Shown here piece by piece: positions 3,914 through 63,753 of a stretch of DNA of 64,000 nucleotides. The notes below the pieces were generated by a model. It made no database searches, had not been told where the DNA came from, and saw nothing but the letters and a program-made list of their open reading frames with translations. This stretch comes from Proteromonas lacertae. Taxonomy: Eukaryota. Position 1 is the first letter of the stretch; each line of letters begins with the position of its first letter. The position numbers and the translations under genes were made by a program. The stretch lies in NCBI GenBank assembly GCA_002245135.1, contig NGBS01001188.1, positions 1 to 64,000 on the forward strand. The letters are read 5' to 3'.

Positions 3914-3972
3914 AACTAACTTATAATATTTATTTTATCTTTATTTTTAGTTGTTAAAGTATAAAAACAAAT

Positions 3973-10073: not shown

Positions 10074-10324
10074 TTAAAAATTGTTTTAATAAACTCATTA
10101 GCAGGATGTTTGGAGAATTAATAGTTTATTATTATAAATATAGGATTAAACTATTGGTATTGTTAAATATAAATTTAACATCAAATTATGAAATTTCAAA
10201 TAGAATAGCTTTAGTTGCATTATTAATGGAATTTATAACAAGAAAAAAGAAACATGTATATTGAAAGAGTATAAATTAATAATTGTTTATATATTAATTA
10301 GTAGATAATAATGAAGAGAATGGT

Positions 10325-10603
10325 TTAAGCTTTTAAACATTTACACCCACAGCTGCAATCGTTATCATTCTTTATACTGTTTTTGCAGCACAAACAATCG
10401 CATTTACAATTTCTATCTTTACAATAACAGCAATATCTACCACATTTACACTTTGTATTACTTGCACGACTTTTTTTACAACAGTCACACTTACATTCAC
10501 ATTTTGCATCACATTTGCAGTCATCACAACTACATGTCTTATCCTTATCACATGTACACACTCCGTTTTCTTTACATGATGGATTGTCGCATTTACCAGA
10601 CAT
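10325..10603 (-). CDS. Metallothionein (MT3), diverged paralog
   Basis: 92 aa; same MSGKCDNPSC start and NDNDCSCGCKCLKA end; many synonymous changes relative to MT1. Confidence 0.9.
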   Translation of the reverse strand: MSGKCDNPSCKENGVCTCDKDKTCSCDDCKCDAKCECKCDCCKKSRASNTKCKCGRYCCYCKDRNCKCDCLCCKNSIKNDNDCSCGCKCLKA

Positions 10604-10646
10604 TTTTGATGATTCTATTGATTAACAGAGAAGAATTGTTATAAAA

Positions 10647-10672
10647 TAAGAATATTCTTAATCTTCTCAGAA
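10647..10672. promoter_or_regulatory. Candidate stress/metal response element upstream of MT3
   Basis: 14-bp palindrome TAAGAATATTCTTA (nGAAnnTTCn) plus TTCTCAGAA; related motifs lie upstream of the other three MT genes. Confidence 0.45.
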
Positions 10673-11036
10673 CAATCTGGAATGTTATGTTAATATTGTC
10701 TTATGTATTTTGTCTTATTATATATTTCCATACATGCATGCAATTAAAAATGTGTAGTTATCTGTCCATTTTGATTTTTCAATGATTACTATATAATAAA
10801 ATGAACATGCCATATCACAAAACTATATATTTCTAATTGATAAAGTGGGATATTACATTTTTATTGTATGAGTGTATTTTATTAATTGGAATTTACTATA
10901 CTCTATAGATATAGTAATGTAGGTTATAGTTATGTTATTATATAACAATCAATCTAACAATCAAACACAAAACATCATACATCGAGACAATGGTTATTAA
11001 TTAATACACTTAATTAACTGATAAGGATATTATCAT

Positions 11037-11318
11037 TTATGCTTTACAGCATACACAACCACAACTACAATCGTTATCATTCTCTATAGCTGTTTTACAG
11101 CAGATGCAATCACAAACACAACTTCGATCTTCACAATAGCAGCTCTCCTTTCCGCACTTACATTTAGTATGACTGTTAAGACTCTTTTCACAGCATTTAC
11201 AATCACATGCGCACTTTACATCACATTTGCATTTTTCACAACTAGAATCTACGCCTTTTACTCCACAATTACATACACCCTTCTCTTTGCATGAAGAATT
11301 ATCACATTTTCCTGACAT
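11037..11318 (-). CDS. Metallothionein (MT4), 93 aa
   Basis: Start placed at MSGKCDNSSC by homology with the paralogs; Cys pattern largely conserved. Confidence 0.9.
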   Translation of the reverse strand: MSGKCDNSSCKEKGVCNCGVKGVDSSCEKCKCDVKCACDCKCCEKSLNSHTKCKCGKESCYCEDRSCVCDCICCKTAIENDNDCSCGCVCCKA

Positions 11319-11717
11319 TTTTATCGGTAGATTTTGAAGAAATAGCAAAAGTTGATAAAAAGAGTTTTTGAGAAGAAAACAGAATAAAAAAGAACAAATA
11401 TATTCTCTTAATTATTCTCAGAAGGATAAAAAATATTACAGTTCTATACTCCATCTTATAATTTTTAGTTTAGTTAAACAATTAAACACAGATTCTCACT
11501 ATTCCACGAACCAATCTACTTCTGTACATTCATTCCATAAATGTATATTTACTGATTAAATAATGGGTCAGTTTTTTCATATGAATGATTACTTTTTAAA
11601 TTCTTTCAATAATTCCACGTTAACTTCACATGAGTTAGAATTATAATATTTAACGTAAGAACAACCATAAATTATACCCATAGCACATCTATATAATAAA
11701 CATCCAAAATATCTCTT

Positions 11718-11778
11718 GTCAAAATAGATTAGAATATGTGTTATTTACTAAAAATATATTCATAAATTCTATTTTGAC
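11718..11778. promoter_or_regulatory. Inverted motif pair GTCAAAATAGA...TCTATTTTGAC upstream of fibre-like gene B (also before A and C)
   Basis: Perfect 11-bp inverted repeat here; CAAAATAGATT/AATCTATTTTG at 15935-15991; TCAAAATAGA/TTTATTTTGA at 3852-3911. Confidence 0.55.
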
Positions 11779-11834
11779 TCAAGTGTCAGTTATATTGTTT
11801 TTTCTTTATAATTTCATCTATCTAACATAATATT

Positions 11835-14800: not shown

Positions 14801-15823
14801 AAAAATAGATAGCATTTTGGATTTAAATAATCACGAGTTAGCTAATGTTGGTTCATTTTCATTATCGAAAATAAATATTGCTGAAATTGAAAGTAAAGTT
14901 CTAGGTAGTGCTATTAAAGTATCATCGAATTTAGATTTTCAAGGAACAAAGAATATAGAAAAACTGAATGAAGTAACAGCTAATACAGTGAATGTAAAAA
15001 CAAGTTTAAAATTGATGAAAATAGAATCATCAGATAATTCAAATAAAGTGATTAATGTTTATGGTGTTTTAAACTGTCAAAATAACGATGTAAAGAATAT
15101 AAATATATTAGAAACAACTACATTGAAAGTAAATACACTTCAATCTAAATCTTCATCACCAGTGAATGTCAATAATAATTTGGATTTAGGAAGTAATGAT
15201 ATTAATAATGTGAAAAGTTTATATGTAGATGCATTATATTCAAAATCAAATAATCTTATTACAATCAATCATGATATTCAATTCGTTTCAGGTAAAGGAA
15301 TAACTTCCTTACCAAAGTTAGTAGTTAGTGAAATAGCGAATAATGGAAATAATGTAAATGTTAAAGATGATATTAATATGAATAGTAAAGATATTAAACA
15401 GTGAATCAATTATCAGCTGCTTCTATTATTTTATCTCAAAGTATTCAAGTTCCAACTATTACTAATGGAGCTAGCGCTGTAGTGTTTAATAGTAAAGTAA
15501 ATATGAATAGTAATAGTATAGAAGGAGTTAATACTCTAACAACTACTAATGTAGAATGTAATCAAATGAAGGTAACAAATATTGCAACTACTGACCCTTC
15601 TATTTTATTTTCAAATGATTTGAATTTAGACAATAGCAGGAATATAGTAAATGCCAATAAAATTAATGCAAATGAAATCTCAGCAACAACAATGAAACCG
15701 TCTAAATTGGTTATTCCAGCATGTAATTCGGCTGAGAATAATGTTTTATGTTTTGATGGTGGTAGATTAGTTTATTATAATGGTTCTACAAAAATGTACA
15801 TTTCTACTAGTACAATTCCTTAA
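11835..15823 (+). CDS. Type II membrane fibre-like repeat protein B; multiple frameshifts (assembly errors or pseudogene)
   Basis: ATG 11835; intron 11878-11903 in frame. ~12004-13780 is nearly identical to 4143-5918 of gene A; unique first exon and distal half; cap KLVIPACNSAENNVLCFDGGRLVYYNGS. Indels near 12200, 12490, 12760, 13240-13560, 14700 and 15400. Confidence 0.75.
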
Positions 15824-16057
15824 ATATCTTAAAATGTATAAATTACATATAGTCTATTTAATTTATTATATTTTTTTACTATTGCTTGTTGTTTTAAATG
15901 TTTTTAAAAAGAAAATATTTGAAACGGTAAAAATCAAAATAGATTTTATCACTTTAATATAAATACCTATTTTTCTTTGAAATCTATTTTGGAAGTCGGT
16001 TATTTTTTCTTTTTCATCTTGTTAATTAATTAGTTAAAATCTGTTAATATAATAAAC

Positions 16058-18553
16058 ATGGATTCTCGTAATTGTGATACACCTAAAAGGTTTTCGAGTA
16101 TTTTATATAGAATATTATAAAATATAGATAATAGCCCTTCCGTTAGTTGCAAAGCTAGATCTGGGTATGGTTTACAAACTATTAAAGTAAGTCCTGCTCC
16201 AACAAATTCTCAACCTCCAATTGTTATGATTACCCCAAAGAAGGATGATGTAGATTTTCTTGATGTTGAAACACCTCGTAAAGCTAGTAATGCTAATGCT
16301 TCAACTAATATATTTTACTATAACGATAAAGGAATAGGAACTGAAGATAATACAAAGAAGCCATTTGACAAGGAAAAGTTCAAGAAATTTTGTTGTATAG
16401 GATGGTTAATATGTATATAATAGATATATTGCTATATTCTCAATAGTTTTTTTAATAATCGTAATATTAGTAATCTACACATTTATACTCTATGCCATAG
16501 CTACAGCATTCTTAAGATCTAACTACAAAATATCAATCGATGGAAATGTACTTCATTTAAACTCATTAGATGTTGAAAGGTATTATAGCAACTATATTGA
16601 TGCAACTCAACATCAACAAACCAGCAGAATATTAGAAACAACAGGAAATGAATCAAAAACAAAGAATATTAGAGAAGAGAAAAAATCAAATTTCAATCCA
16701 AAGCTTGTCAAATCTTCAAATCGTCAGCATAATAGACTTATTATTGATAATGACAATGAATTGCATTTAAAAACAAAAAGTATAGAAAGCCAAAATGCAT
16801 ATGTGGATGGTAATACTGAATTTTTTGGAGATGTAAAATTCGGTAATTCAACAAAACCAGTAAATGTAGCAATCGATAATGGAGATTTGAAAGTAAAGAG
16901 TTTAAAAGTAACTGATACAATTAATTTAGAAAAAGCAAAATTTGTATGGGATGCTGAAGATCAATTTACAGGTGAACAATATAAGAATGTAAAATTAGGT
17001 GAAATGAGTATAAAAACGTTGAATATAGAGAGTAAAGTATGTAGTGTAGATGCAAGTAGTGTTACAAAGATTAACGGTGTATTATTTACATCTCCAAATA
17101 AGATATCAAGTGATGGTGATTTAACAATTGAACCAAGTGATGTTAATACTAAAAGAGTGATTATTAACGGAGAAACAGAAATGCAAACTATCAGTTTAGG
17201 AGCTGTTACTGATGGTGGAAAGATTTACGTTGGATTAAAAGATAGAACATTTTATGATAGGGATTCATCAATTATGAAATTATATATAAACGAAAATAAA
17301 CAATCAGTTGTTGATACTTATGCTGTTGATGTTCAAAGTACAATTAAAACTTTATCAATATATACTGATACTATTGGAGTTAGAACAACTACAGCTACTC
17401 CTGAAAATGATATAATTAAAGTATTGAATTCTATAAATGCAGATGGTCAAACAATATTTTCAAAAACTATAGATGCAAATAATGTAAGAATGAATAGTAT
17501 TGAATGTCGAGAAGCTGATAGAAATAATGATGGTATAAGATGTAAAGATAGTGTCATGTTGAGTGTTAATGAAATTGTTAATATGAATGATTACAGTATA
17601 AGAAATGTTAATGAATTACATGTAAAATCAATTGTTAGTAGTTCTACTTCAATAGCTTTGAAGAATGACTTGGATTTAGGTAATAAAAATATAAATAATG
17701 TAAAGACTATTACTGTTGAAAAAATCCAATCAACAGGAGATGATATTAATATTCTTAGCAATATTAAGGCTGATGGTAAAACAATGACAGCTAAATCAAT
17801 TGAATTAACTGATTCTATTTCAACACCGAAAATAGAAACAACTGCTATTTCTATAACAATTAAAAATGATTTAGATCTTGGAGGTAATAGTATAAAATCA
17901 GCAAATGAAATTACTTCAACAACATTGTCAGTTAATTCATTATTGACAAATAATATTTCAGGAAAAGTCCCAGCCAATCCAATTAATGTTAAGAACGATT
18001 TAAATCTTGGAGTTAATAGTATTACAGCCAAATCAATTATTTTGACTGATTTAAAAACTTTAGAAATATCAGGAAATGGTGGTGATGTTAAAGTTAAGAG
18101 CAATTTAGATCTTCAAAATAAAAATATTGTAAATACAGGTGAAATAAAAGCATCAAAAATGTCAATTACTGGAGTTACTACTACAAATACATTATCTGCA
18201 ACTACATCTATATCTACACCAAAAATTGATACAGTTGCTGACAAAAATTACTGTTGGAAAAACATTAGATCTTGGTGTAAACGATTTAGAAACAGCAGGT
18301 GAAGTAAAAGCTAATATTTTATCTGCATCTACATGCAATAACATCAGATTATACACCAGCAACATAACTGTTACGGTAAAGCAGTAGTTAATAGTATTGT
18401 TGTGGTAGATTCAATTAAAACTTCCATGTAGTATCATCTGTAGCTTGCTACAACTGCGCAGGATAAGAGAATACAATATTTTATTCTGGTAAATGAAATG
18501 TATATATGTATTGGAATATGCGCTAAAAATAGTAAATCAGAAATTCCCCTTAA
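16058..18553 (+). CDS. Type II membrane fibre-like repeat protein C (divergent paralog); 3' end frame-disrupted
   Basis: ATG 16058; introns 16098-16127 and 16413-16446 at the same positions and phase as in gene A. TM WLIFFLIIVILVIYTFILYAIATAFL, then NYKISIDGNVLHLNSLDVE (A: HYKIEMNGDVLSLNSLEVG); KNDLDLGNKNINNV repeats. Cap recognisable only through indels after ~18240, so the end is approximate. Confidence 0.75.
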
Positions 18554-18651: not shown

Positions 18652-20831
18652 TTATATTGGACAACTCATTCTTCTCTTTTCATTCCTCTTCACACTTCTA
18701 TTCATCAACAAATTCTCATTAAACAATCCATTATTCATAATCAAAGGATTATTATTTACTCCATCTGATGATGTATATTGTCTAAAACTCTGAAATCCTT
18801 TTACAGATTTCATATTATTAATTCCATAGTATTGATGAATAGAATCACTTATTATAATATCACTCATTTCATTAGATTCACCTTCTTCATCATTCCTATT
18901 CTCTTTCTCTTTCATTTTCTTCTCACATTCATCTTTATTCTTCAACAAATTATCCATTAAAAACGATAAACAAGTAAAAAATGAAGTGATTGGCATTAAA
19001 AATGGTTCAACAACAAATTTAATGAAATCTAAATTCATCTTTTCACTTGGAATGTTATTATTTCTATCACAAAGTGGAGTTACACTCTTTCCATTATTTC
19101 TCAATATATCTCCTTGAATATACATTTCTTTTTGTAATAAAGATGACCACATTGATGATATATCATTTGGTTTATAATTATTATTAATATCAGCACTCTT
19201 TATTATATAACACATCAATAAATCAACATCATTTTCATTATACTTTATATTACTTAAATTACAGTGGTTATTGAGATTGATAGGTGAATCAGAATTACTA
19301 ATTGGTAATTTTGATGGAGTATTAGAGAGAGATGGAGATAGTGTATTACTGTTGTTGTTAGTATTATTATTATCAAAAAAATCAGGAGATAATATCTTCA
19401 AAGTAAAGTTTTCCACAAATTCATTATGTTTTCCCATATCAGTCGCTAATATTAACTTTTGAACTTTTCTTATTACATATTCTTGATCATCTAATGTCAA
19501 TCCACTAATGATAGATGAAGAAATTGAAGATGATGGAGTTTGAGGAGTTTGAGGAGTTTGAGGTGTAGTTACTGCAGTTGTAGTTGGTGATGATGATATA
19601 TCAGTGTTTATTGTATCATCTTCATAATTATTAATAAGTAAATCAGTAGCAATATGAGCGTGCATCATTTCCAACGTTGGATGGTTTTTGTATAAGATTG
19701 CAATAGGATGAGAAAGTTCTATATAATAATAAAAATAATAATAATCCATACCAACTAATGTTGAATTATTCAATCCAAAATGTCCAACATCATGACAAAT
19801 AGCTGCTACAAATAATGAGAATAAATCAATGTAACTTATATATTTCAATAAGTTCATTTGTTTATGTATAATATAAAGAAAGTGGACTACATCAAATCCA
19901 TGTATAAAACTATGATACGGTGTGGTTGTATATCGATTATATACTTTTATAATGAAGCTTTTCATTGTATTATGTCGAATAAAGAATTTTTCTAAAAATC
20001 CTAAATTTTCAAAGATGTATAATATATCTTCGATTAAATCAGTTATATTATATAACCATGGATTGAAATAGATAGAACTTAATACTTTTTCCCATCTAAA
20101 GTGGAGATTATTGTTAATTTTACTCTTTTTAGTGTCTGCACTAATAGCTATTGGTTTTATTACATTAATTTCTGTTTGAAGAGGTGCAAATGGCTGTTGG
20201 TGGGTTTATGCTATCATTGATTCTATCGAATTTCTTATAAATTGCTTCATTAGAAGGAATTTTTGGCTTATTATCATTTGACATACATGCTGAAAATATA
20301 ATAGAGTTATTATTCATAGTATTAACCGGTGATATTGTATCTATACGCTTTTCGTGTAAAATCTTTGTTTTATCATCGTATGTTGTATTATCTAAACTAT
20401 TTTCACCTAAATCCTCTTCTTCATCAGAATCTACATAGTCTTCATCAATATATCCATCTAAATGCAAGTCATTTAAACCAACTCCAGTTGCAGGCAATAA
20501 TTGGTTAAATCTTCCAGTGTCTATATATTTATATCAATGAAATAAATACATGGAGACCTTGTAGATATATCAGTGACCAGGCTTGACGATCTTGAGCGTA
20601 ATGAGGCTACTGGACATGCTGGAAGTAAGGGTGAAGTGAAATCTGCACAAATTTTCTCTGTAAAGTTGTTAAGAGCATAGTACTTTAAGCACACAGAATT
20701 TCTATGACCATTTCTATTTTTTTATAATTTTTAGTTCATATACTTGTCCTTATTGAGGTAAGCGTATTTATTAAGGTGACATCTAGTGAAATAGATCACT
20801 ATACAGAAAAATACTCGATAAAAGACGACAT
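18652..20831 (-). CDS. Class I 3',5'-cyclic nucleotide phosphodiesterase
   Basis: PYHSFIHGFDV, HDVGHFG, EMMH, ATDMGKH, KSADIN and QGD motifs. Introns 20783-20814, 20714-20743, 20521-20549 and 19719-19751; one frameshift near 20190. Confidence 0.93.
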
Positions 20832-45501: not shown

Positions 45502-48500
45502 ATGAACTATTTCTTCATATTCTTTTTGTCTATATGTATAAATTCAGTAAATATTGTTATAATAGGTATTACTGCTTCGATTGAGCAGAATGCAGAAAAG
45601 AACTCAACTGAAAGAGGTATAAAACAGAAAATGAAAGGATCTGGATTGAATATAGAATTACCAATCGGTGAGAATGAGGTTGTAAATGATGAAGCGACAA
45701 ATAGAATCGTCTCAGCTTGTGATGGTTCAGATCATATAGTTTCCCTTTATTATGAGACAGAAAATAGGTAATAGATTACTTCCTGACAAGATGAATGAAA
45801 ATATGAAAATTGAAGAATTCAGTTTATATTTAGGTGAAAAGAAGATTGACTTGTCAAAGCTGTTTAAATCAGAAGTAAAGGATGGTAGACAATCTACTAC
45901 AATATGTCTTGAAGAAGGTATTTATGAAATTAGTAAGAAGTGAAGAAAGAAAAGAAAGATGGTCATTAGATATTCTGAGGATTGAAATTGAAAGGTAAAA
46001 CCATTGCAGCAATAAATATGAATGATTTGAAGGAAGGAGAGGTTGTGAAAGTAAATATAGGAAGTTCTAAAGAAAAGAAGTCTTCTGTAAGACAATTAGT
46101 TAGCTATATTGTATTAGCAGAAAGTAGTGAATGGGGATATTCGTTTAAATCACAAGATGGTATTTCTTGGAATAATGAAGAGAATGATTGGATAAGTTAT
46201 ATTCCAACAGGTTATCCGATCAAAACCGCAATTACCACTTATTATCGAACTAAATTCATTCTTCCTGATATATCAGCAATGAATGGTCCAATCTTGAAAG
46301 TGAAATATACTGATGGTTTAATAGTTTATGTAAATGGAATAGAAATCTTTCGAAAGAACATGCCGATTAGGAGAAATAACTTCAGAAACCAAAGCCATCA
46401 AATCATTTTCTACAGTTATTGAATCAACAATAACAATTCCTCAATCAATAATCAAAAGTTTTGACAATTTTCATAGGAATAGAAATTCATAAAAGTGAAT
46501 CAAGTCCATTTAATCAAGAAGACAAATTCTCAGCTTCAATTGAAACAGTTGATAGAGGATTGTATTCACAAACAACAGCATCTAATGTAGATATAACAGT
46601 AAGATCACAAGCTGGAAATGTACCTACGATAGGAAATCTTCTAACTAACATGTTTTCTATAAATACAGGTTCATTGTGGAGTTACTTTAGATAGATTAGG
46701 AGCAGCAAAGTGGTTTCCAATGAATTTCAATTTTACATTTAGAAATCATGTAGCTAAGTATGTAAATCAATTTAGAATAAGTGGATGTTCAAATAATGAT
46801 TTTACTCATCCACAGAACATAAAGATATATGGTTCAGTTGATAGTGAGAATATAAATTGGATATTACTTTTTGAAAATACAAATTTGGGTTTATCAGTAA
46901 AAGATTGTAGTACTCTTTCAACTTATGCATTAAATCCGGTTAATAAAGCTTTTGAAAGTTATAGATTGGAAGTTATAACTACAAATCAATATACTACAGG
47001 TGAAACGCAATGGGGACATTATATTCAATTCAAATTATTTATATTAGATGAAAAACCACTTTCCATATGTCAAGCAAATGAGAATTATCCTTCTACTAAT
47101 ATTGGAATGACTTCAATTGCTTATTGTGGAAGTGGATATAAAGAAGTAACATGTGGAAATGGTGGATCATTTGAAGCTGAAGATGATCATGGATGTGATA
47201 ATGATTTAATCAAAAGTGAATGGCAATATACTGATTCTGCACCATCTTCTGATAAATGGAATAATGAATATATCGATGGAGATAATGGGTGGATAAAGAA
47301 ATCTTCATCATTTCCTGATTTTACATCATCTATTAGATATTATCGAAATTATTTTATGATAAATGATTTATCAGTAAGTGGATCACCCAAACTGAAAATC
47401 ACATATCAAGATGGTATAAAGATATATATAAATGGAAATGAAATATTCAAACGAAATTTGAATGGAAATATAATAGTTCCATTTGCTTCAGCAACTGAAG
47501 AAACAATATTAATTCCTTTACCTGTTTTATTGAATGGAAGAAACATAATTGGAATAGAAATCCATAAATCTGATTCATCAGGTGTAGATCCGATTGATTG
47601 TTTCATTAGAATATATGAAATTGACAATAAGTACAGTAACAACATTAGATACAGTAAATGTGGATGAAATTGGTTTAGAATCTCTGAAAACGGGAAAAAC
47701 ATGTATAGATAAAGAGATTTGGATAGAGTATTAGTATTTAGTGATGTTAAGCACTGATCAAAATCGTGATTTTTGTAGTATTACAATAGAAGAGGCGAAA
47801 AAAAGGAGAGTATTTTCCATTTTATATAACATACAAATTCAATGAATATAATGCTTTTTATTTCAATGAATTTAAGATAAGTGGTTGTAGTAATAATTAT
47901 GATAATCATCCAAAGAATATAAAGATATTAGGAGCAACAGATAAAGATCATCCAGAATGGGAAGAACTATATTCCAATACTGAATTTAGGATTAAAGGTA
48001 CAGCAAAATTAGAACAGTGTAATGAAATTAAAACCTTTCCATTAAGAAATGTAAGAAAATCATATGAAAGTTACAGATTAGAGGTTGTTGATACACTGAA
48101 AATTATGATGCAGAATTGTATGGAAATTACATTCAATATAGATTGTTTATATTAAATTCAATTTCACTTCCTGTTTGTTATAGTTATGATGGTTTTGAAA
48201 AAGTATTTGCTGGTGAAACATCAATAATGAAATGCCAAAGTGGATATAAAGAAAGAAGATGTTTAGAGAATGGAATATGGGAAGATGCAATAACAGATCA
48301 TGAATGTAAAATGGTAAATTATTATATCTCAACCAAACCATATCATCAAAATAGTATTACATTAGAAAAAGAAATAAAATCCTTATCAATAACAATCCCA
48401 GGATTAACATATAGTGGAAATACACTTACATTGAAAAGTGATGAAGAATTAGAATATGTTAAAACAACAATCATAACCTTCAAAGATGATTCAACAGCTG

Positions 48501-51500
48501 CTGTTTATGTGAGTGTATTGAGAAATGAAGTGAAATGTGATTATGGATTTGAATCAATCAATTTATTTGAGATGGAATATGATTTGAGATTGAAATGTAA
48601 TATTCAACCATTTGTAAGTAAAATAGAAAATTTACCTAGTGGATTGAAATATGGTAATAATGGGAGAATAACAGGCCGAATAACCGATGTAAGTAAAGAA
48701 ATAACAACGAGAGTGATTCTTCAATCTAATAAAGAGTTTGATATAACAATAGAATGGAAAAAAGGAGGTAGTTTAGAAAAAGGATTAGAATTTGTATTAT
48801 GGAGTAGATCAGAACAAGATGGAATGACTGTTGATAATGATTTTAAAAGTAAAAGTTTAAATGAAATGTGGTTAAAATTTGAAAATGGTTATTATGATGT
48901 AAAAGATCCAATGACAATAACAAATGCAGAAATTACATATTCTAATACTGCGCCTTCATGTTTAACAGATTATTGGATTCCATGTCAAAGAGTTGTAGCA
49001 AGAATAAGAGGTTATTTATATATTGATGAAGAAGGTGATTATGTATTATCTGGAAAATCTGATGATAGTCAAAAATTTGCTTATGGAAATTTTGAAGTAG
49101 AAAGATATACAACAAATAATTGGGATGATGAAATAGACTTTCCAATTCATTTAGCCAAAGGATATCACACCGTTGGATATTTATCATGGGGTGGAGATTA
49201 TGGAAATGGTTTTATAGCAAATTACAAAAAGTCAGGAGGAAGTAAGTCAAATATTAATAATATAATGTTTAGTGGTGGATTTCTATTAACTCATTTATCA
49301 TATGGAGTTAATACAATAATATATGAAAAAGGAGTGAGTAAAACATTAATACCATCTTATGAAGGATATCCATCAAAATGGTCAATGAATCCTTCAATAG
49401 CTGGTTTAAGTTTGAGATTAGATGGAGCATTAATTGGATTTCCAACAACATGTGATAATGAGTTTAAATCAATTGAGATAAGTTCGAATGGTGAAATTGA
49501 TATTTCAAAAACAAATATTCAAATAATCTGTTATAATGAAAATGACAAATTGAATAAAATAAATGGATTATTAGTGAAATATTATACTGCGAGTAGTGTG
49601 AAAATTGATGTATTTGAAGAACCAGAATCAGCTGTTGATTCAAAATTGATGTTAGAAAGAATAGAAACTTCATCATTATTCCTTTCAAAGAATGAAGAAT
49701 TATGGAATCATTTATTTATAGCAGATTATGTAGGATATTTATATATAGAAAGAAGTGGAAGTTATAAACTGAGATTGAAATGTTATGACTATTGTAAAAT
49801 GATATTAGGATCTGATATAGTGTTTGAAGGAATAGGAAGTGGTTTACATGAAATAGATAAAGCAATGGAATTAACAAACCAACTATACAAATTAAGAATA
49901 GTTTATAGCAAAAGTGGAAATGATAATATGAAAGAATTAGAATTATTATATGAAGAAGATGGATTATATAAATCAATTCCAAAAGAATGGTATTACACTG
50001 ATCAACCATATCCATTCATTTATTCATCAATAAATAGTAAATATTACATTAATGATGAAATATCAAATACAATAATTAATCAAAATGTTGTATTAGAAGG
50101 ATATAAATATTCAATTGAACCATCATTACCAATTGGATTATCAATATCTGAATTGACAGGTGAAATCTCAGGAGTAGTAAGTGAAATAGACAAACAGAAA
50201 GCTTATACAATAACAGCTGAGAAAGATTCCTCAAAATATTATTCAGAAATAATAATGGAAGTAAATGAACAAGTAAAACCACAAATTGCATATCCAAATA
50301 ATGGTTTGAGAGGAATAGTTGGTAATAGTATTACATTATCACCATCCTCATCCAATGTAGTATGTGATATATTATCTATATTAACACCAATTGAGAGTAT
50401 ATCTATTGATTCACAAGGTGTTATAACAGGTAGAAGTGATGAACCATATTCTGGAACAATGCAAGTAAAATGTACAACTTATAATACAATGACTATTGAT
50501 GTGAAAATTGAAATAGCTTGTGGTGAAGGAGAAGACTTTCTAATAATGGATTATTTAATCAAAAGTCAACCAGAGAGTGTGGAATCTAGAAATATTGAAT
50601 GGAGAAAGATCAATATATTCATCTTCAAGTGAAAAATCATTAGAAGCTGATAAGATTTATACATTTATGAAATGTATTACAAAAGAGAATAATCAATTAA
50701 AAATAACCTCAAATTCCTATTTAGGTGGTTGGTATAAATTGTTTTATGAAAATCGAAATATGTTTAAATATTCCTCATTCTTCAGAGATGAAACACTTGC
50801 AATTAATATGATTCATTCAAGTAATAAACCAGAATTAAGTTACGAATCAAGCTTATTTGAATTGAGCAATGAAATCTATTATGAGTTTTATCCATCAATT
50901 AAAAATGGAGGAAAGATATTTGAAATAACAAATGAAGATAATTTACCAGTTGGAATGAAATTTGATAAAGAAAGTGGTTTAATATCTGGAATTCCAACAG
51001 AACCATCTGAATCAAAACAAATCAAAATAAGAGTGAAGAATATGCCAAGTGGAGAAGTGAGTGATGAATTAACATTGACATTTTCAAGTGATGTTTGTAA
51101 GAAAGTATTCTTTGAAGTAAATTTATTCATTCGAAGTGGTGATGAAGGATTTATAACATACAAGATGAAGAATGGAGAAAAAGAAATTCAATTATTTGAT
51201 AAGAAAGTTGGTGAGAATAAGAAATATTTCTGTGAAGATGGAAGAACATATGAATTGAGTTTAGGAAGCACAGGAAATGAAATATGGGAATATAGTGAAA
51301 TGAGATTACAAATATTACATGATGGAGTAGTGTTATTTAGAGGAAGAAATATGGATGGAAAAAGTGAATCTACAGTGAAAATAAATACAAAAAATCTAAT
51401 TCCATTTAAAAATCCAATGAAATATAGTGAAGAAATTCAACAAAATAATGATTGGAATGAATTATCCTATGATTCAAGTAAATGGATAAGTGTGAATGAT

Positions 51501-54500
51501 TTACCCTCATTTAATGCTGATAAATTGGTGAGATATTATATTGAATCATTTGAATTTAATGAAGATGTAAGTGATTTATCAATGTTTTATTTATCATTTA
51601 CATTTTCAAATGGAGGAATTCGAATGTTTATGAATGGAATAGAATTTTACAATAAATATTTACCAAAAGAAGTGAGAAGTGAAACAGTAGGAAATTCTTA
51701 TACAAAGAGTGAAAGAAAATATTTTGTAACAGCTCCAATAACATTATTAGATAAGAATGGAAATAATATTCTGGGAATAGAATTTCATAAATCTGATAAA
51801 AGTTCAACCGAAATAGATGAATTTAAAATAAATGAAATGTATTTATTATCTGGAATAGATAAATGTTATTTTGATAAATATAGCTATTTTGAAGTTGGAA
51901 GAGTAAGTGAGCAATATCCATCACTTGATGGAGAAAAAGTTGAAAATGCTTTTAATTATATTTTAGACAATAATAAGAAAGCATCATGGAGTGAAACATC
52001 TCCTTTATATTTTCAATATTCATTCTATCCTGAAGAATCAAGATGGTTTAATGGATTACAATATCGAACAGGTGATAATGCCAATCGTCTGGTCAAAACA
52101 TTTGAAACATATGGAATTAAAACCTATTCAAATGAAGCTGATACTGAATTAATGAAATTATTTGATTATTCTGATACTACAACCAAAAGATTAGTTTCTG
52201 GTTTTAAATCACAATACTTTTCATTAGGAAGTGAAAATTCCCTATCATTCAATGGAATTAGAATTAAGATAAATGAAGGTGGATCTGAAGGTGTAGATAC
52301 AGGTGGTGTTTATCCATATAGTTGTCGATTATCCTGTTTTACAGATGGAGAATGGAAATCTGTTGCATATGGAGAATATAGAAAAATCAAATGTGGAGTT
52401 TTACCAAATGCATTTATAACCCGAAAATGTGGAGATAATGGAGAATGGGAAGAAAAAATAGATGATAGTAGTTGTGGAAAGAAATGTCAAGTGAGATTTT
52501 ATAATAAGCTAGTCGAAACATATCAAGGTAGATATGCTGAAATAAAATGTCCAAATAGAGAAAATAAGAAATGGAGAGGATATTGTCCATTTGCAGAATC
52601 ACCAGAATTTATTGATATAATAGATGAATGTGTTAATATTAAATATCCAGATAATTATGTTACTCAAAGTGGAAAAGAAGTCAATATAACTCCAGAAATA
52701 TCAGAAAATGGACCAAAATTATCATTTAGTATAGAATCTGGTTATAGCATTTTTGAGATAGATTCATCAACAGGTGTTATAAGTGGAAGAATTCCATCTG
52801 ATATATTAGAAGGAAAAGAATATGGAATAGTAATAACAGTAATGCCATTTGATGAAAAATATATAATAACGATTAAAATAAAAGAAGAATCAAATAATGA
52901 AGAATTTTTGAAATTGATAAGTGAAGGAAATGAAATAGCTGAAATAACCAAAACATATAAAATTGATATGAGTAAATGGAAAATTCCTGAATCTTTATCA
53001 TTCAAGAAATTAACGACACTTGGTGATTATTCAGTGATAATGAAGAATTATATAAAAGAAAATGAGAATAATATATTGAGTTTATTTGGTTTATTAGAAG
53101 ATAAAAGAATAGAACATTTACATTTGATAATCGAATCTTATGATGGAAAAGAGAATAATCCATTACTTAAAACCTCAAATGATGGAATATTTTTAGAATT
53201 GAAAAATTGTTATCTGTATGATGTAAAATTGAAATTAAATCCAAATATCGAAATGAATCAAGATGAAGATAAAACATTTGGATTATTAAGCAACTCAATG
53301 GAGAATATGATAATGATTCATGTCGGAATCTATTTTGAAGGAAAGATCTCAATAAATTCAATGAATTATATCTCAACATTTGGTTTAATAAGTGGAATGA
53401 TAAAGAATAAAGAGGGAAAAGAAGTGAGTGGATTATTTGTGAAAGGAAATGAATATAGTTTTACATCTACCAGAAATGATAATAATCATGTAGTTCATGA
53501 AGGTTTAATGTTTGGATCAAGTGATAATTTGATAATTTCATACAGTTATAGTGATATAAATATTCATGGTAATATAGATAATAAATTGGAACATAGTCAG
53601 CTAGTCTTGACATGTAGCTCATTACTACAACAACATCATCATATTATGAAGTTGTTATCGATGTTTTGTTATTGTTAGAGAAATCGTGAATATTAAATCA
53701 GATAGTTGGACATTCTTTAGTCCATTTGTTTGCCGTGGAAATAATCCAGTTTACATAGATGAATGTTGGAGTGATATAAAATTTGGTAAATTAGATGGAA
53801 CAATGGATGTTATAGGATTTAGAGGTCATTTTGAAGATGATGGTAGTGATGCAAAGTTGGAATTATTTAACAGTTATAATAACTGGGAATTTACACAATC
53901 AACAATTGATGAAGTAAAAATAAATTGTTTAGCAAGATATTCAACCAGTAGTACAATAATGAAGAATGTATATGTTTCAATATCAGTTAATTCTGATGAA
54001 ATAACAGTTAATAGAATGGTAAAAATAGGTGAAGGAAATAGTCCAGATGTAATTAATAATGTATATATTCAAAGACCAAATAGAATTGATGTAGATGGAA
54101 TAGATTTAATAAAACTACTTGATGAAACATCTGATATAAAAGAAAAACCATATAAATATTTGAATGGATTTTATATAAATAAAGAAAAATCAAGATTATA
54201 TTATTCCATATTACCTCAATATGATGGAAGTAGAATAATTGATGAGTATGGAATATTAGAGAATGTTGATATAACATTTGATGAAAATAATAATCCATTT
54301 TATGCCAAAGGCAAATCAATTTGGTATAGAAATGAGATAAATTTAAATATAATATACAAAGATAATATGAAAGATAGTTATAAGTTATATTTATTATTAA
54401 AAGAAGGAAATGAAGAAATTAACGTCTCAATAAGTGAAAATGAGTGTATAACTGTAGGAGACGAAACAACAGTGAAAAGTTGGTCAAGTATTGATTCATC

Positions 54501-57500
54501 TGTTAATTCAATTACTCAAACACTGAATAAAGATTCATGTAGTTTAAAAGCATATAATAAATTCAATTATGATATAAATGGAATAACAAATGATAAATCT
54601 GAAATAATCGAAATAATAAATGCTGAAATAGAACCAGAATATGAAACTGATTTAAAAGAGAATATCGATTTAGAGAGTGAATTTTATATTCAATTCTCAT
54701 TACCATATCCATCTAAAATAGAATTAACCAAAGTAACAAATAAAGATACAAATGAAGTAGGCAATGGTTTAATAACTGTAGAAGGAGAAGTTGAAATGAA
54801 ATATGAATTGAATAATTATTTATACAAAATGAAATTGAAAAGTGGAAATGTTTTAATTCCAACCAATGTTGAATTTATATTAAAAGTGATATTTGATTAT
54901 AATGGAAATAAAAACAAAGAAATAGAATATACAATCAAAACAATTATTCAACCAATATGTGCAAGTTCATTTAAATATCCAGAGAAGAAGAATGTAATGA
55001 TAATAGGTAAAGAAATAAATATATCTCCTGAATATGAAGGCTATGGAGGTATATTTTCAATCATAGATGATTCAATAAAATCAAAATTAGAATCTTATGG
55101 AATTACATTTGATGAAAAGACTGGAAAATTATCTGGAAAAGCAAATTCAATATTTGCTGAAATAGAGATAGAAGTAAAAATGAAGAATAATAAATATGAA
55201 TCAACCACAAAATTATCAATAGAAGTAATATATCCAAAACCGAGTGAATTAGAATATAAAGACGAATATAATGTATTGACAGTAGGAATAGAAGTAAGAA
55301 TAGAACCATTAAAATGGGATAAATCAGTTGATGCCAAATTTTCATATGAATCATCAATGAAATTAGAAGATTATAATTTAAGATTGAATGTTGAAAATGG
55401 TATAATAAGTGGAATTCCAAGTAAAGATTTAGCTAAATCAACTGATGTGAAAATAATCTTGAAGAATAAAGCTGGAAGTATATCATTTCCATTGAAACTG
55501 ATGATAGAAAAAGAACCTGATTATTCTTTTAATCGATTAATAAAATCTGATGTAAAATCAATCATATTAGAAAGATCTTATGTTGTTGATATGAAATATT
55601 GGGAAATACCAAAAGATATAAAATGGAGTTTATTAGAAGGTAAAAATGAAGAAACAAGAATCACAATCGAATGTCGAAATTCCAATGAAATTCAATTATT
55701 TAATGAATTGGATGGTGTGGTTCTAAAACATTTGAGATTTGTTATAAAACTAAAAGGAGATATTAATGGAATGAGTGCAATATCAATAAAATCTAATTCG
55801 ATGTTTAAATCCATGTCAAACAGTTATTTGTATGATATAGAAGTGAAAATAGAAAATGATTTAACATTTGAAACAGTTAATAATGATGAGAATATAAATG
55901 GATTATTATTGAATTCCATAATAGATTCAACTTTATTACATGTTGGAATAATAAGTTCAAAAGAAATGATAATCAAAACTACTGGTAATGAAATGAAATT
56001 TGGTTTAATAAGTGGAAAATTGTATAATAATATAAATGTAAATAAAGTAGTGAGTGGATTGTTTATAAAGTTGAATAAATATTCCTTTGAATCAACAAAT
56101 GGTAATATGAAAAGTGGTTTATTATTTGGTGAAGTAAAAGATAAAAGATTATTTTATAGTTATATTGATGTAAATGAAATGAATTTGAATGTTAAAAATG
56201 GAATTCATAGTTTGATGATTGGAAATAGTGATAGTGATTATGAAATAAGTAAAAGTTTTGTAATAGTGAGAAATTCTTTGAATATAAATAATTATGAAGA
56301 TGTTGAAATTAATGTTTATAATGGAAATGAAAATATAAAAATGAAAGAATGTTTCAGTGATATAAAAATAGGTGAAATGAAAGGATTATATTCATCATCA
56401 TTATTAACAATGAATATGAATGGAAAAGAACTTGTTAATAGTTATAACTATATTGAAATAATGAAAGATATTCCAAATAATGTGAAAATATATTTAATAT
56501 CCAAAGATTCCATTTCATCAATTATTAACATCTTCATATCAATAAGTAAATCAGAAAATGTTAAAATCAATGATGATGTTATAATAACAATGAATAGTAA
56601 ATCTGTTGGTGAAATTGAAAATGTATATATTGAAAAATCTAAAGATGTAAAAATAAAGAATGATGAAAATAAGATTGAATTGATTGATGATAAATCTGAT
56701 GTGAAAGAAAAGCCATATAAATATTTGAATGGATTTTATGTGAAGAATGATAGATTCTATTATTCAAAAATGCCTAGATATGAGAATGGAAGAATAATTG
56801 ATGAATATAGAATATTAGAGAATGTTGATATAACATTTGATGAAAATAATAATCCAAAATATAGCAAATCAAATGATATATTGTATTTGAGTGATATTCC
56901 ATTATCAAGAATATACAAAGATTACATTCCTGATGATGGATTTAATCTTCATTTATTATCAAAAGAAAATGAGAATAAAATATCAATTGATGTAAAACCA
57001 TCTTGTTTTAAAATAGATAAAGATTTCATACTGGAAATCAATACATTAGAATCAATAAACAATATAAAAATATCAGAAGATTGTTTAACTGGAATGTCAA
57101 ATCATATTGAATTGAAAATAACATCAAATGAAAAGACAATAATAATTCCAATGAATATAATTGATATTAGTAAAGAAGCTGTTATAAAAACAGAACCAGA
57201 AATAATTGAAGAGAATTCTCAATTCTATTTGATATTTGATGATATTACATGTAATGCAACCAGTTTGAAAGGAAAATCTGAAATAATGAGTTTAAATAAT
57301 AATATAGAAATCAATGATGAAATCGATAATACTTATAGTAAAATTGAAATTTCAATAAGTAAAATTTCCACAACTAATCAATATTATGATAAAACCGAAG
57401 AAATATGTTTGGATTATTATTTTAATGGATATGAAGAAATGAAGAATAGATGTATGAATTTCACAATAAGAATTGAACATAAATTCCAACCAACTCTTCC

Positions 57501-60251
57501 TCCTCCTCCTTTAATATTAACTGAATTACCATCTTATCATATTGAAATAGTGGAGACAATAAATGAAATAATACCTGATTCAATCTGTACAGTTCAAAGC
57601 ATGAATGAAGAAGCAAAAGAATTGAATTTCAAACCATCTATAAAGAATCACATACAAATTGAAAATACAATTCTAAAAGATAAAGCAATCAATTTAAATT
57701 CAATTCCATTTGCAACAGAATCTTTAACATCTGAATTTACTTCCAAAATCTTAGCAGAATCAGAGAATGAAGTTATTTCGTTTAGTGAATCTTATTCAAT
57801 GATAATGGAAAAATATGAAATACCAACAATCAACAATATATATAAGAATAGATTTTGGAAATAACAAATTGAATTTACAATTTTCAATATATAAATTAAG
57901 AGAAAGATTATTGAATGAAGAAGATAAAAATAAATATTCAATGAGATTATTTGGTGATTTGAATAATGTGATAATTGAAAATGCTGAAATCAATATTTAT
58001 ATGAAAGAAAATACAAATGAGATAGTAATAAGAGAATGTGGAATATTTGGTTCATTAAAGAATTCAATATTAAAGAATATAAGATTAAAATTCTTGAACA
58101 ATATTCGATTTGATTGTAATTTTAATTCGACATTTAATGGCTTAATCAGTGGTAAAAGTGAAAATGTGACATTTGAGAATGTTGAAATAGAGTTTTATAA
58201 AGATAACATCAGAACCTTGGCAATCGAGAATCAAGATTCAAACATATTTGGAATGATAGTTGGTGTTGGAAATGATATAAGAATGATAAATTGTTTTGTA
58301 TTTGGTGATATAATGACAGTGATAAATAATGGAAATAATACCAAAGGCAATAGTAGTATATTTGGTGGATTAATAGGAAAATGTGAAGGAAGTTGTGAAA
58401 TAGATAAATCTTATATTCAAGTGAATAATATTCTATTGTATCAAAGTATGATATTTGGTGGATTAATTGGTTCATTAGAGAATGATAATGGTGAAATGAA
58501 AATAATAGAATCATTTGTATATATTGAAGATGGTTTAAGAATAGGAGTAGATAAAAATCAAAAAGAATTTGTTTATGGTAGTTTAATTGGTGATTCCAAC
58601 ATATGTAAAGTATTGATAGATAATAGTTGGGCAATATTCATAACAATGGGAATAGAAATAAACACAACAAATACTAATTTTGGTGGAATGATAGGACGAA
58701 TAGGTGATATTAGTGTTGAAAATACAATAACCATAACAAATTCTTCAATTCAAATGCCAATTGGTCATAATACATTTATATTCAGAAAAGGAAAAGATGA
58801 AATAGAAGAATCTCCAAATATTGGATTTATATTTGGAACAAATATAACAGAAAATAAATCTTATAGATTAGATCATACAATGGCTTATATAGAATCATGT
58901 AATAGTAGTAGTGAATTCTATTGTATTTCTCCACAAATGTATTATCAACCAAAAGGAAAATATCCATATATTCCTCTAAAAAGAGTATTATCTCCAACAG
59001 AATATAATTATTGTGGTGGATCTGGAGCATTAAGATCAGGTGGTGTATTTGTAACTCTTGAAGCTCAAGGAAATGATTTCTGTAACTCATTAGGTAAAAC
59101 AACATGTGAAGGATATAATGGAATATGTTATGATGATTTATCTTATAGTCCATGTAAATTACCAAAAGAAAGAAGTGAATTAAGATTATCAAAAGATCCA
59201 ATATATATCTCATCAAGTAAATTATTATGTCCAAATAACTGTTCAAAACATGGAGTATGTGTATATGGAGAATGTCGATGTTATCCTGGTTTTACTTCAT
59301 TTGATTGTAAATATCGAAGTTGTCCATTTGGAAGTCCAATATCTAATCCATCAAATGAATATGATAAAGATGATCGATTATATTATGAATGTTCAAATCA
59401 AGGAAGATGTAATAGTGAGAATGGATTATGTGAATGTTATAGTGGATTTGAAGGAAATGCTTGTCAAAGAACGAAATGTGCAAATGAATGTTCAAATCAT
59501 GGAATATGTATGACATTAAATGAAGTTGAATTAAGTAAAGAAAAAGGAAATATAAATGATAATGATGAAAACAATTATGATATAAATTATATAAAGAAAT
59601 ATGAGAAATGGGATAAAGAATCAATTCAAGTATGTGTTTGTGATAAAGAATATCGAGGAGTTGATTGTTCAATTCGAAAATGTCCTTATGGATATTTGAG
59701 TGAAAGTGAATGTGATTCTGTTGCTCAAAGTGAAATAACAATTACATATTCTCAAACAACATCTAAAATTTCCACAATTGATGATAAAGTATATGTGAAA
59801 ATATACAGATCCATTTAATCGAGTATGGTTTACAAAGAGTTTTAGTATAAGTTCAAGTGAAGAATGGTTAAATGCTTTAGGATCATTACCTCCAGAAACA
59901 TTATCAATAGATGAATTAACAGCTAATAATGGTGGAAATGAAATAATAATTCATATTATATTCTCAAAACATCAAACAGGAAGACAATATCCAATCCAGA
60001 TAATTGGAAGTAAAGAAATAAAAGAAATTCCAGAATTGAAAGATAAAAAGAATGGATATTATCATTGGATAAATCCAAATTTGAATAATATTCTTAATAC
60101 TGAAAATGGAATATTTAAATATGAAATGGATTATACTCAAAGATCATCTGAATGTAGTAATAATGGAATTTGTAATACAAAGAGTGGAATATGCAATTGT
60201 TTTGATGGTTTTAGTGGAATATCTTGTTCTGAAGTGAATGAAAGTTATTAA
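45502..60251 (+). CDS. Giant secreted multidomain protein (~4900 codons): galactose-binding-like jelly rolls, F5/8-like, PA14-like, He_PIG-type Ig repeats, GLUG-like region, C-terminal mastigoneme-type EGF module; about a dozen frame breaks
   Basis: Signal-like MNYFFIFFLSICINS. YYRTKF..YTDGLIVYVNGIEI..IGIEIH three times; ARIRGYLYIDEEGDY..SDD and ADYVGYLYIERSGSYKLRL (PA14-like); LPxGL..TGEISG/SGLISGIP Ig repeats; FGGLIG repeats; CPNNCSKHG..ECSNQGRC..CSNHGIC..ECSNNGIC. ORFs abut on one strand and no introns were recognised. Confidence 0.8.
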
Positions 60252-61266
60252 ATATTATTGATTATATTATTATTATCTTATATAAATCATTTATCTTGTA
60301 TTGTCCTTTTCTATAACATAATAGAATGAATCTAAGATTAATCTTCGATTGAGTTTGATTCTATTTGTTTCTATTGTTTTATTGCTTTTATACCTGTTAC
60401 TATGACTTTTCACCAGAATCCCTTACTGTAATATGTTTTATTGTAGACATGAACAATTTTGATTATTTTTTATTTCTTATTCTCATATATACACTCTCTT
60501 TTCTATTTTTATATAAACACTTTATATCATACAAATTATGAGTTTATAAAAACAAAATAAATAACATATATATCCATTCATGTTTTTATTATTCTATCTA
60601 TGCTTAATGATGATTTAAAGAGAAAAATTAAAAATGATGAAAGAAACGGCTAAATATTTATAAATAGAAAAGTATTTTTGCTAAATTTACTTGTAAATGA
60701 TGTATTATGATGATAGTTAATAGATGATCGTGAAGTATGGTGATGGTTTTATTATTACAGAATGATTAAATGCAGAAAGAAACATATTTCAAGTGTAATT
60801 CATACTAGACTTGCATGATGATAATATGAAGATGTCTAAATGATATGTAAATTAATAATGATATGATTTGTTAGTAATTATGATGATAACCTGAAATTGT
60901 TAATTTGTGTAAGATGGTGTGAGAATATGAATGATCAAATATTCTATTTAAGATGTATTAAAATTAGAGTATAATATGTGTTATTTTTGTAAAGTAAATA
61001 ATTTGTTAAGACATTTTGATTATCTATACCATTTCTTCAATGTTATTGGAAAAATAACACCTATAATTACGTAACATTCAATTAAGATGAAAAATACAAA
61101 AACAGGTCGAAATTATTCTGAATCATTATCTGTTGCATATAGTAGTGTAGAATAATTAGTAGAAGAACTTTTGTATTGTTTAATTTTCTTATGTTTTATA
61201 TAGGTGAAAAGAAGAAGGTTATAAAAGAAGTACTTATTGCAAATATGTAATTATAGGTTCATTTGG

Positions 61267-62336
61267 TAATAATATTGACAGGTTATGGTGCTTTAAATAA
61301 GTTAATGGGTAAAACAGTTTATACTTCAAATAATCAATTAGGTGGTTCAAGTATAATGTATAGCAATGGTCTATCTCATTTGGTAGTAAATAATGATTTA
61401 GAAGGTGTAGAAAAAGTAATTGAATGGTTAGAATTTGTTCCAAAAACCAAAGAAGATCAATTAGTTCCATATATTTTGAATGATAAAATTGAAAGAGAAA
61501 TAGAATATGAAATTCCCTCAATTCCATCAGATCCTCGTTTAATGTTAACTGGTGTAGAAACAGAATCAGGTTTTAAAAGTGGATTCTTTGATAAAGATAC
61601 TTTTATAGAAACATTAGGAGGTTGGGCAAAGACTGTAATATGTGGAAGAGCGAGATTAGGTGGATATGCATGTGCTATAATTGCAACAGAAAATCGTACA
61701 ATTGACTGTATAATCCCAGCTGATCCAGCTACACTTCAATCACAAGAATAAATAATCCATCAAGCTGGTGGAGTATGGTATCCAGATAGTGCATTTAAAA
61801 CAGCAACAGCTATTAATGATTTTAATAGTGAGAATTTACCATTATTTATATTTGCGAATTGGCGAGGCTTTAGTGGTGGTGATCATGATATGTTTGAAGA
61901 AATCTTGAAATATGGTTCTCAAATAGTTGATGCTCTTGTTCATTATAAATATCCAATTATAATTTATTTACCACCACATAGTGAATTAAGAGGTGGAGCT
62001 TGGGTGGTATTAGATTCAACAATTAACAGTGATATGATTGAAATGTATGCTGACACATCGTCAAGAGGTGGAGTATTAGAACCAGCTGGTACAACTGAGA
62101 TAAAATATCGTATTGGTGATATATTGAAAACAGCTCATCGTTTAGATAAAACTTTACAAGAATATGATTTAGAATTATGTAATAATACAGAATTGAAAGA
62201 AGAAGAAAAGAAAGTGATATTAGAAAAGATAAAAAGTCGTGAAGAGCTATTATTAACTACTTATAGACATATCGCAGAATCATTTGCTGATTTACATGAT
62301 ACTCTAGGTAGAATGTGTGAGAAAGGAGCAATAAAT
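61267..62336 (+). pseudogene. ACC: Acetyl-CoA carboxylase carboxyltransferase fragment, truncated at both ends, with an in-frame stop
   Basis: IILTGYGALNKLMG, SNNQLGG, GFFDKDTF, WAKTVICGRARLGG, IPADPA, QAGGVWYPDSAFKTA, FANWRGFSGG, ELRGGAWVV, RGGVLEP and FADLHDT. TAA at 61749-61751. No ACC sequence upstream, and homology stops after KGAI. Confidence 0.9.
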
Positions 62337-62656
62337 AGTCGTTTTAATGGTATTAGAAAGAAGTTTATAACGAAGAATGTAGAATCCAATGCTAGTGAAG
62401 ACACTAAAACATCAATTGATAGTCTTTTTAATGTTGTTAATCATTTAAATAAGAATTCAATGGAAGTTAATATTGTTAATATAAGAAATGCTTTAAGAAA
62501 GAAATTTACATTTCAATAATTAAAATTATTGTTATTATTATTTCCAGATTTTCATTTTTTTTGTTATTAAATTTACTCTTTTTTCTTTTTTAAATTAATT
62601 CAAAAAAAACAAATAAAAATGTTTAAGTGAAGATTTATTAATAAAATGGTAATAAA

Positions 62657-63753
62657 CAGTGTTGTATTTTTCGGTCAAAAAATATAGGTTTAGTTGACCT
62701 CCTATTGAACATGAGTTAAGAAGCATATAATCTAACCATATATACAAAATTAATGTTTTATACATCATCTTTCAAATATCAAATTTGACAGTCGGTCGAT
62801 GCGCTTTTTATATTACTATTATTTTGATGTAATTCTCAATGATGACTCACAGTAACATATAATCAACATAATATTAAATTAATTATAGAATAAAAAAAAT
62901 AAAAGAAAAAACATCAAGCTTGATGGTTTGACTAAGTAAATCTTTATTTTTTAAGATTTAGATCATTTAAATGTATAATTACTCAATATTTATAAGACTT
63001 TATAATATATGAAACTATAGGGATATCACATTACCCCCTATCGCATCAAAAGAGTTGTGCATTTATTCAATTGTTGTATGTTAGAGAAGTAACATTTTAA
63101 CTACTTCAAAATGTTTTGGAAAACGTGATTAAAATAAAATATTCAGATTATTACATATGGTAAAAGCCAAAGTCAATTCAGATTCCGTCAACAAAGATCT
63201 ATTTAAATTAATAACCTTCAATGCAGTCAGTACAATATTAGACTTACCAGAATTTAGAAGGTTTTGCTTCAAACTAGGATATATTATACCTCTAAGAGAG
63301 TTTTATAATGCTTATTTATTTTCAGAAACTGAGAAAGTAAGAGACTTATTGAAGACAAATCATTAATATCCAAAAATAGATATCTATTATTATAATTACA
63401 ATAATATTTGTTTTTTAGAGATAGTAATCAATATAAATTAATCATCAAAATAACTTGTTGTTTATAAATATGTTAAATATCACTATTGAGTAGTTTGTAG
63501 ATGAATTTTAATATATTAGTATAGATATTTATATAATTTCAACCAATCTTATTCTAACTATGGTAATTAAAGTAAAACAAGAAGCAGGAATAATATTTTA
63601 TATAGTATGATAGTTTGTATTAAACAAATGTTACTCAGTATGTAATTAAAATAGATTTTAACAAAATAATGCTCAAGGTTTGACCGACCGTCAGTCAAAG
63701 CTAGATTATAGGTTTTACCTATAACCTATAGGTTACCTATTTATACAACCCTG
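62657..63753 (+). mobile_element. Non-autonomous hAT-superfamily DNA transposon, 1097 bp
   Basis: TIRs CAGTGTTGTAT (62657) and ATACAACCCTG (ends 63753) match 10/11. Exact 8-bp TSD GTAATAAA at 62649-62656 and 63754-63761. Subterminal TATAGGTT/AACCTATA repeats; internal remnant STILDLPEFRRFCFKLGYIIPLR resembles a hAT transposase N-terminal region. Confidence 0.92.

Follow-up and report, generated by a model that had tools for sequence, protein, structure and literature searches.

The window, as we call the whole stretch of 64,000 nucleotides that was analyzed, encodes a module that is, on sequence comparison, a complete subunit of the tubular mastigoneme (Mas/Ocm) type and not a generic array of EGF repeats. 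The same comparisons place it in a separate Mas subfamily that could be assigned to none of the three shaft classes represented in the structure PDB 9UFE. The reading that we tentatively favor is that this module forms the C-terminus of a giant, likely secreted protein of ~4,900 residues and docks a sugar-binding stalk to Mas-type partners on a probably hairless, Blastocystis-like gut protist.

All cysteine motifs that an earlier note on this DNA had quoted were indeed found on the plus strand between 59,225 and 60,251 (Table 1). They build four EGF units in the Mas order, of which units 2 to 4 are split, and what the earlier note had called a spacer before the last EGF unit is present but is actually a conserved domain inserted as a whole within the fourth unit, the first cysteine of which lies at 59,681 and the remaining five at 60,153–60,227. 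The 24 cysteines of the module are collinear with those of single-module Mas proteins. The stop codon (60,249–60,251) is reached seven residues past the last cysteine, exactly as in 38 of 38 rows from the Mas2, Mas3, extra-cysteine and own classes, and at position 6 of this tail the query carries a serine, compared with a hydrophobic residue in 22 of 22 Mas2 and Mas3 rows. No transmembrane segment follows the module, in agreement with the earlier note, and none was found outside the signal peptide in the whole protein (best 19-residue hydropathy 1.44). The motifs are all there, but the note had overlooked that the frame shifts by one base net near 59,800, and the module is carried by two overlapping open reading frames, 57,806–59,818 and 59,799–60,251. 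The break falls inside the motif Y.DPFGRVWF, which is uninterrupted in four related proteins (P0090, P0086, P0118, and P0141), and for alignment the module was read across it with X. Folding the module from its sequence alone gave a model too poor for use (pLDDT 40).

Table 1. Features along the giant gene and within its C-terminal module (window positions)
Feature	Position	Strand	Basis or remark
Start codon and signal-peptide-like N-terminus, MNYFFIFFLSIC..	45,502–45,580	+	sequence and hydropathy only
Two tandem ~365-aa units (jelly-roll, F5/8-like, small Cys domain)	46,096–48,305	+	internal repeat alignment
Ig (He_PIG) domains and two PA14/GLEYA-like domains	48,341–51,099	+	Pfam; frameshift near 50,588
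Third jelly-roll/F5-8-like/Cys unit	51,405–52,473	+	internal repeat
Beta-helix unit 1	52,911–54,430	+	repeat of units 2 and 3; frameshift region ~53,600–53,655
Ig-like stalk domains	54,490–55,510	+	weak He_PIG (E 0.002), remainder presumed
Beta-helix unit 2	55,525–56,992	+	internal repeat
Beta-helix unit 3, presumed GLUG/IgA1-protease-type parallel beta-helix	57,745–58,790	+	model; frameshift near 57,827 inside
Cys-rich linker, 7 Cys	58,898–59,155	+	in frame with the module
Mas module, EGF units 1–3, 18 Cys, insertions in units 2 and 3	59,228–59,668	+	
Motif CPNNCSKHG	starts 59,228	+	read from sequence
Motif ECSNQGRC	near 59,387	+	read from sequence
Motif CSNHGIC	near 59,489	+	read from sequence
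Motif WDKESIQVCVCD..DCSIRKCPYG	59,610–59,692	+	read from sequence
EGF unit 4, first Cys, extra Cys (59,711) and inserted spacer domain	59,681–60,150	+	frameshift near 59,800
Motif ECSNNGIC..SC	60,150–60,227	+	read from sequence
EGF unit 4, last five Cys, 7-residue tail and TAA stop	60,153–60,251	+	

That this stretch might instead be a separate gene, or a generic EGF array of the tenascin/teneurin kind beside unrelated reading frames, is suggested by the Pfam names for it, which comprise EGF_2 and teneurin EGF families only, and by a word-based and insensitive search of long proteins, in which the only matches were tenascins (2 among 109 candidates). Profile and structure-based comparisons make this very improbable. 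The front part of the module matches all six chains of 9UFE with E-values from 2e-35 (9ufe_EA, its strongest PDB match) to 2.5e-21, compared with 8.5e-7 for the best teneurin, and 9UFE chains rank top for the rear part as well. A profile of the four relatives (17–330) aligns end to end with residues 57–362 of 9ufe_BA, spacer included (E 4.4e-39), and the module scores 122–229 bits against class profiles compared with 67 against tenascin. When the 3,860 library hits were ranked and the top 150 considered, single stretches reach up to 128 bits in Mas-type proteins versus up to 51 in repeat-EGF proteins, and tenascin-like proteins stand high in this ranking only via the summing of many repeats. 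Tenascin and teneurin arrays have EGF_2-type cysteine spacing and Pfam hits in common with the module, but they consist of short repeats of uniform build and lack the split units, the WD..C.CD motif and the spacer that the module possesses, and their layout of uniform tandem EGF units with FN3/fibrinogen or NHL/YD domains was not found in the query protein. Against a separate gene speaks the frame 57,806–59,818, in which 440 residues of beta-helix and linker run into the module with neither a stop nor a hydrophobic signal segment between, and of which the beta-helix recurs in two units further 5'. With the generic-EGF test failed, the mastigoneme family call therefore stands.

The subunits in 9UFE share with the module its four EGF units and their insertions, a spacer in unit 4, the lack of a transmembrane segment and a stop right after the last EGF unit. 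They differ from it in being 209–748 aa long and in carrying the module at the N-terminus or close to it, whereas the query protein has ~4,575 residues in front, the extra cysteine and a polar tail; likewise, canonical Mas1–3 are short proteins, whereas at least 440 aa lie in frame upstream of the module and ~4,575 by read-through. The front part scores 80–126 bits against all six chains, compared with 260–430 for true class members against their own chains. Three of the chains are named OCM3, OCM5, and OCM6, and the other three, called "Tubular mastigoneme protein", we take to be Ocm1, 2, and 4 by order and length; the source organism is presumably Ochromonas danica, and we assume that Mas1 corresponds to OCM1/6, Mas2 to OCM2/5, and Mas3 to OCM3/4. 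The Phytophthora PnMas1–3 and brown-algal MAS1–3 proteins, likened to the module by description only, are EGF-containing secreted hair proteins that the accessible parts of the literature portray as stramenopile-specific, confined to flagellates and located on the hair shaft (10.64898/2026.09.11.750887; PMC13109109; 10.1101/2024.02.19.579948).

Phylogenetic trees were calculated from 96 and 51 selected rows out of 197 module-bearing sequences, leaving aside the 9UFE sequences and the tenascins, which are not alignable, and labeling clades by one representative each. In both, the module and its four closest relatives, all of them Logan proteins, form their own clade (SH-aLRT 100 and 100/100) on a long stem outside the OCM1/6, OCM2/5, and OCM3/4 clades. 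The assignment to the Ocm1/Sig1 family made by the earlier note thus holds as membership in the Mas/Ocm/Sig family, for which the 9UFE E-values and profiles speak, but in these trees the module is not nested in the Mas1, Mas2, or Mas3 clade. A topology that joins it to the OCM2/5 core was not rejected (p-AU 0.136), and the same holds for one that joins it to a group of long-N-terminus proteins carrying an extra cysteine (p-AU 0.248). This additional cysteine, ten residues past the last CP.G motif, is present in five of five subfamily rows, in 11 of 11 rows of the extra-cysteine group and in none of 65 others (the parsed rows of 76), the count and the grouping not being independent, as the group was taken from a tree that included the extra-cysteine column. 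The predicted starts of the four relatives fall after EGF unit 1 and resemble mis-called exon starts.

Beyond these relatives, a scan of metagenomes yielded 266 confirmed stretches, 80 of which were kept. Their best segments are 23–45% identical, and of the loci that entered the trees, none fell into the subfamily of the module. A word-based, insensitive homologue search gave one match among 273 candidates; no relative was found in 59 prokaryote genomes; one of 27 viral contigs contained a match, a 40-residue EGF stretch; and an Atlas search with the module found nothing. No relative with the same fusion appeared in the word-based searches and the metagenome scan. There are, however, environmental relatives that share a long N-terminal region, a single C-terminal module, the extra cysteine and the stop seven residues past the last cysteine with the query. 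Among them, the L012 open reading frame (2,508–10,385; at least 2,626 aa) and P0105 (1,677 aa) each end in one Mas module behind N-termini that are mutually related (E 1e-59), have no Pfam match and show no detectable kinship with the query protein; long N-termini are likewise present in L027, L029, and L031. Each of the six long fusions has a polar residue at position 6 of the tail. Since long fusions with unrelated N-termini exist in environmental relatives, the design is recurrent. The giant proteins L012 and P0105 are candidates for hair parts outside the shaft. Mas modules are also found fused to an intramolecular chaperone (Peptidase_S74), to NHL or to LDL-B repeats, or doubled, the latter in a large class with an Aphanomyces protein among its members (P0116, P0147, P0110, P0073, P0137, and P0022 for the whole set).

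Upstream of the module, a coding model run with six penalty settings returned one read-through path from 45,502 to 60,251, which comprises ~4,920 residues, 13–15 frameshifts and 0–1 stops; the ~4,575 residues in front of the module are obtained only if 12–14 further frameshifts are read across. The fusion to ~4500 aa of carbohydrate-binding and Ig domains that the earlier note had proposed is thus borne out at the DNA level by an in-frame junction and by lectin-like and Ig domains on a protein free of transmembrane segments, but the path is interrupted by the 13–15 frameshifts. The signal-like start lies 13.7 kb upstream of the module, is connected to it only across frameshifts and belongs to an N-terminus that is interrupted by a 30-nt GT..AG intron (45,536–45,565). 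Several frameshifts break the first two tandem units, and the sugar-binding-type label comes from an Atlas lead to the third jelly-roll copy that is weak (0.77–0.79, below 0.9). In the adjoining region Pfam recognizes PA14 (E 1.9e-6), GLEYA (8.2e-6) and He_PIG (1.9e-5 and 1.6e-6), the PA14 copies taken separately reaching E 0.002 and 0.016. Internal repeats align across nine of the 16 breaks of one read-through path, including the break at 57.8 kb, and no repeat spans the one near 50,588 or any of the three that lie furthest 5'.

The AlphaFold model of beta-helix unit 3 (pTM 0.59) was matched by VIA-align to 7uvk_A (Z 19.1, rmsd 3.2, 240 aligned) and 3n6z_A (Z 15.1), and a Foldseek search with it gave no match at E 0.001; the name GLUG for this helix is our assumption. 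The fold is shared with M26 IgA1 protease, but the zinc motif HExxH of that enzyme is absent along the whole read-through path. A search with the upstream region among 5,779 proteins of 1,820–5,000 aa, again word-based and insensitive, revealed no relative. By description, the closest counterparts are the candidate adhesins of Blastocystis with IPR008009 (He_PIG), which have He_PIG and bacterial-type domains in common with the query; 26 such genes with a proposed role in adhesion are reported in PMC3129679, in the main text of which the word EGF does not occur. Our literature search, whose reach ended short of the main Mas papers and their supplements, found nothing on this fusion, on Mas genes in Blastocystis or on 9UFE.

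Between residues 30 and 4,100 only seven glycosylation sequons are present where 50 are expected, whereas six housekeeping-type open reading frames are near expectation; between residues 4,100 and 4,575, nine are present and 6.5 expected. Together with the signal-like N-terminus, this strong avoidance suggests that the protein enters the endoplasmic reticulum. The edge of the avoidance is sharp, at ~57,800, and separates the first ~4,100 residues from the last beta-helix. Such an end at about residue 4,100 allows for a chimeric history, and the boundary may mark two evolutionary layers. Sequons are also avoided by an array of Asn/Ile-rich repeat genes without a Pfam match within window positions 1–18,300 (4,631–6,847, 6,822–9,155, and 16,410–18,302; two observed and 20 expected, none and 28, and three and 13, respectively).

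The frameshifts are likely to be assembly errors. Between 12 and 13 of the 13–15 shifts have the same sign; the break near 53.6 kb probably comprises two shifts of opposite sign. Near-identical repeats at window positions 1–830 differ by more gaps than mismatches, much like a noisy long-read consensus. A different view would be that the fusion once existed and was selected, that the frameshifts are real and that this copy is a decaying pseudogene. This is unlikely in the light of the shared sign and the gap-rich repeats, and also because 0–1 nonsense codons are present although 6.7% of single-base changes in the giant gene would create a stop, and third-position GC is still 0.09–0.14 along its entire length. 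Decay is nevertheless made possible by the absence of any frameshift from ~10.2 kb of housekeeping exons within the window, compared with 13–15 breaks in 14.7 kb of the giant gene, a contrast to be read with the bias of a sample chosen as long open reading frames, and by a broken neighbor: the giant gene adjoins a truncated fragment for an acetyl-CoA carboxylase carboxyl-transferase (61,257–62,519), which contains an in-frame TAA (61,749) and is preceded by candidate introns of 27 and 31 nt. It also draws on a 2.2-kb gene block within window positions 1–18,300 that is duplicated at 95% identity and frameshifted in one copy. Introns were considered and rejected as a cause of the breaks: candidates are lacking at 57,827, those at 59,800 are loose and would delete the conserved motif, and strict intron rules gave no candidate at six of 15 break sites. 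A reassignment of TAA is unlikely because it is with this codon that the module stops, at the conserved position.

The genomic setting bears on the kind of organism in which such a protein would work. This is a eukaryote, for which Mas proteins suggest a stramenopile, probably Blastocystis and less probably Proteromonas. With a GC content of ~26%, the window is nearer to Proteromonas (27%) than to tortoise Blastocystis (21–23%), as given in the accessible part of PMC12129017. Its introns of 29–41 nt and the He_PIG proteins fit Blastocystis (PMC12129017; PMC3129679), the introns of which have thirty bases according to PMC12129017 (sections 5–6), with greater length and variability in isolates rich in AT. 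A cyclic-nucleotide phosphodiesterase gene at 18,652–20,205 on the minus strand (PF00233, E 3.5e-46) would be odd in Blastocystis, for which a loss of nucleotide cyclases has been reported. The window further contains a non-coding 680-bp element, possibly a transposon remnant, as an inverted pair with 91% identity (1,428–2,107 and 62,690–63,368), and a small, cysteine-rich, metallothionein-like open reading frame (11,037–11,411, minus strand) with diverged copies near 3,169, 9,329, and 10,326. In the portions of the literature at hand, Blastocystis is described as lacking flagella and hairs, and its surface coat is thought to trap bacteria; excerpts of further sources served as background (PMC5608401; PMC3745665; PMC11412368; PMC5795050; PMC8924772; 10.64898/2026.10.13.758971).

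On the reading that we favor, the giant protein would enter the endoplasmic reticulum and be secreted, and its distal PA14, jelly-roll, and beta-helix domains would bind glycans. The module would take the place of a membrane anchor by docking onto other Mas-type subunits in the surface coat, acting as a cap or decoration rather than as bulk tube; it is the polar tail that suggests capping or decorating over the building of bulk tube. An expressed fusion with a module that no longer assembles with anything, and would instead cap the end of a released adhesin or lectin, locked by disulfides, or bind a ligand there, appears rather doubtful. The polar tail and the long stem branch would suit it, Mas modules also occur with S74, NHL, and LDL-B domains and are thus used in many settings, and no partner gene was found in the window. 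It has to contend, however, with the retention of 24 of 24 cysteines, of the spacer motifs and of the exact tail length, and with the consideration that a protein without a transmembrane segment would need some other means of staying on the cell.

It is quite unlikely, in our estimation, that the protein is a true hair part, that is, a tip filament or somatoneme decoration built into the tube by its module in a flagellated opalinate such as Proteromonas. This organism has tubular tripartite body hairs, according to the part of PMC11603286 at our disposal, its GC content is close to that of the window, and the extra cysteine is common to the subfamily and the environmental relatives with long N-termini (16 of 16 versus none of 65 parsed rows). 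Yet the introns cluster near 30 nt, the He_PIG adhesin candidates have been reported from Blastocystis, and grouping with the clade of long N-termini, at a p-AU of 0.25, is neither supported nor rejected; that no flagellar Pfam family appeared among the window reading frames scanned is a weak point against it.

Returning to docking in a surface coat as the preferred reading, a more far-reaching version of it can be formulated, which we regard as possible but doubtful: a gut protist without flagella and hairs, both having been lost, would have kept a private subfamily of hair subunits as an assembly base for giant adhesins with bacterial-type domains, and the parallel class of L012 and P0105 would furnish the filaments at the tip or sides of the tripartite hair in free-living stramenopiles. 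The Mas family is in any case wider than Mas1–3, and its double-module, S74-, NHL-, and giant-fused classes are testable candidates for hair components outside the shaft. If our interpretation is true, with a Mas subfamily retained and fused to adhesins, a part of a defining organelle would clearly have been reused after loss of that organelle, and a candidate structural protein would have been named for the surface coat of Blastocystis.
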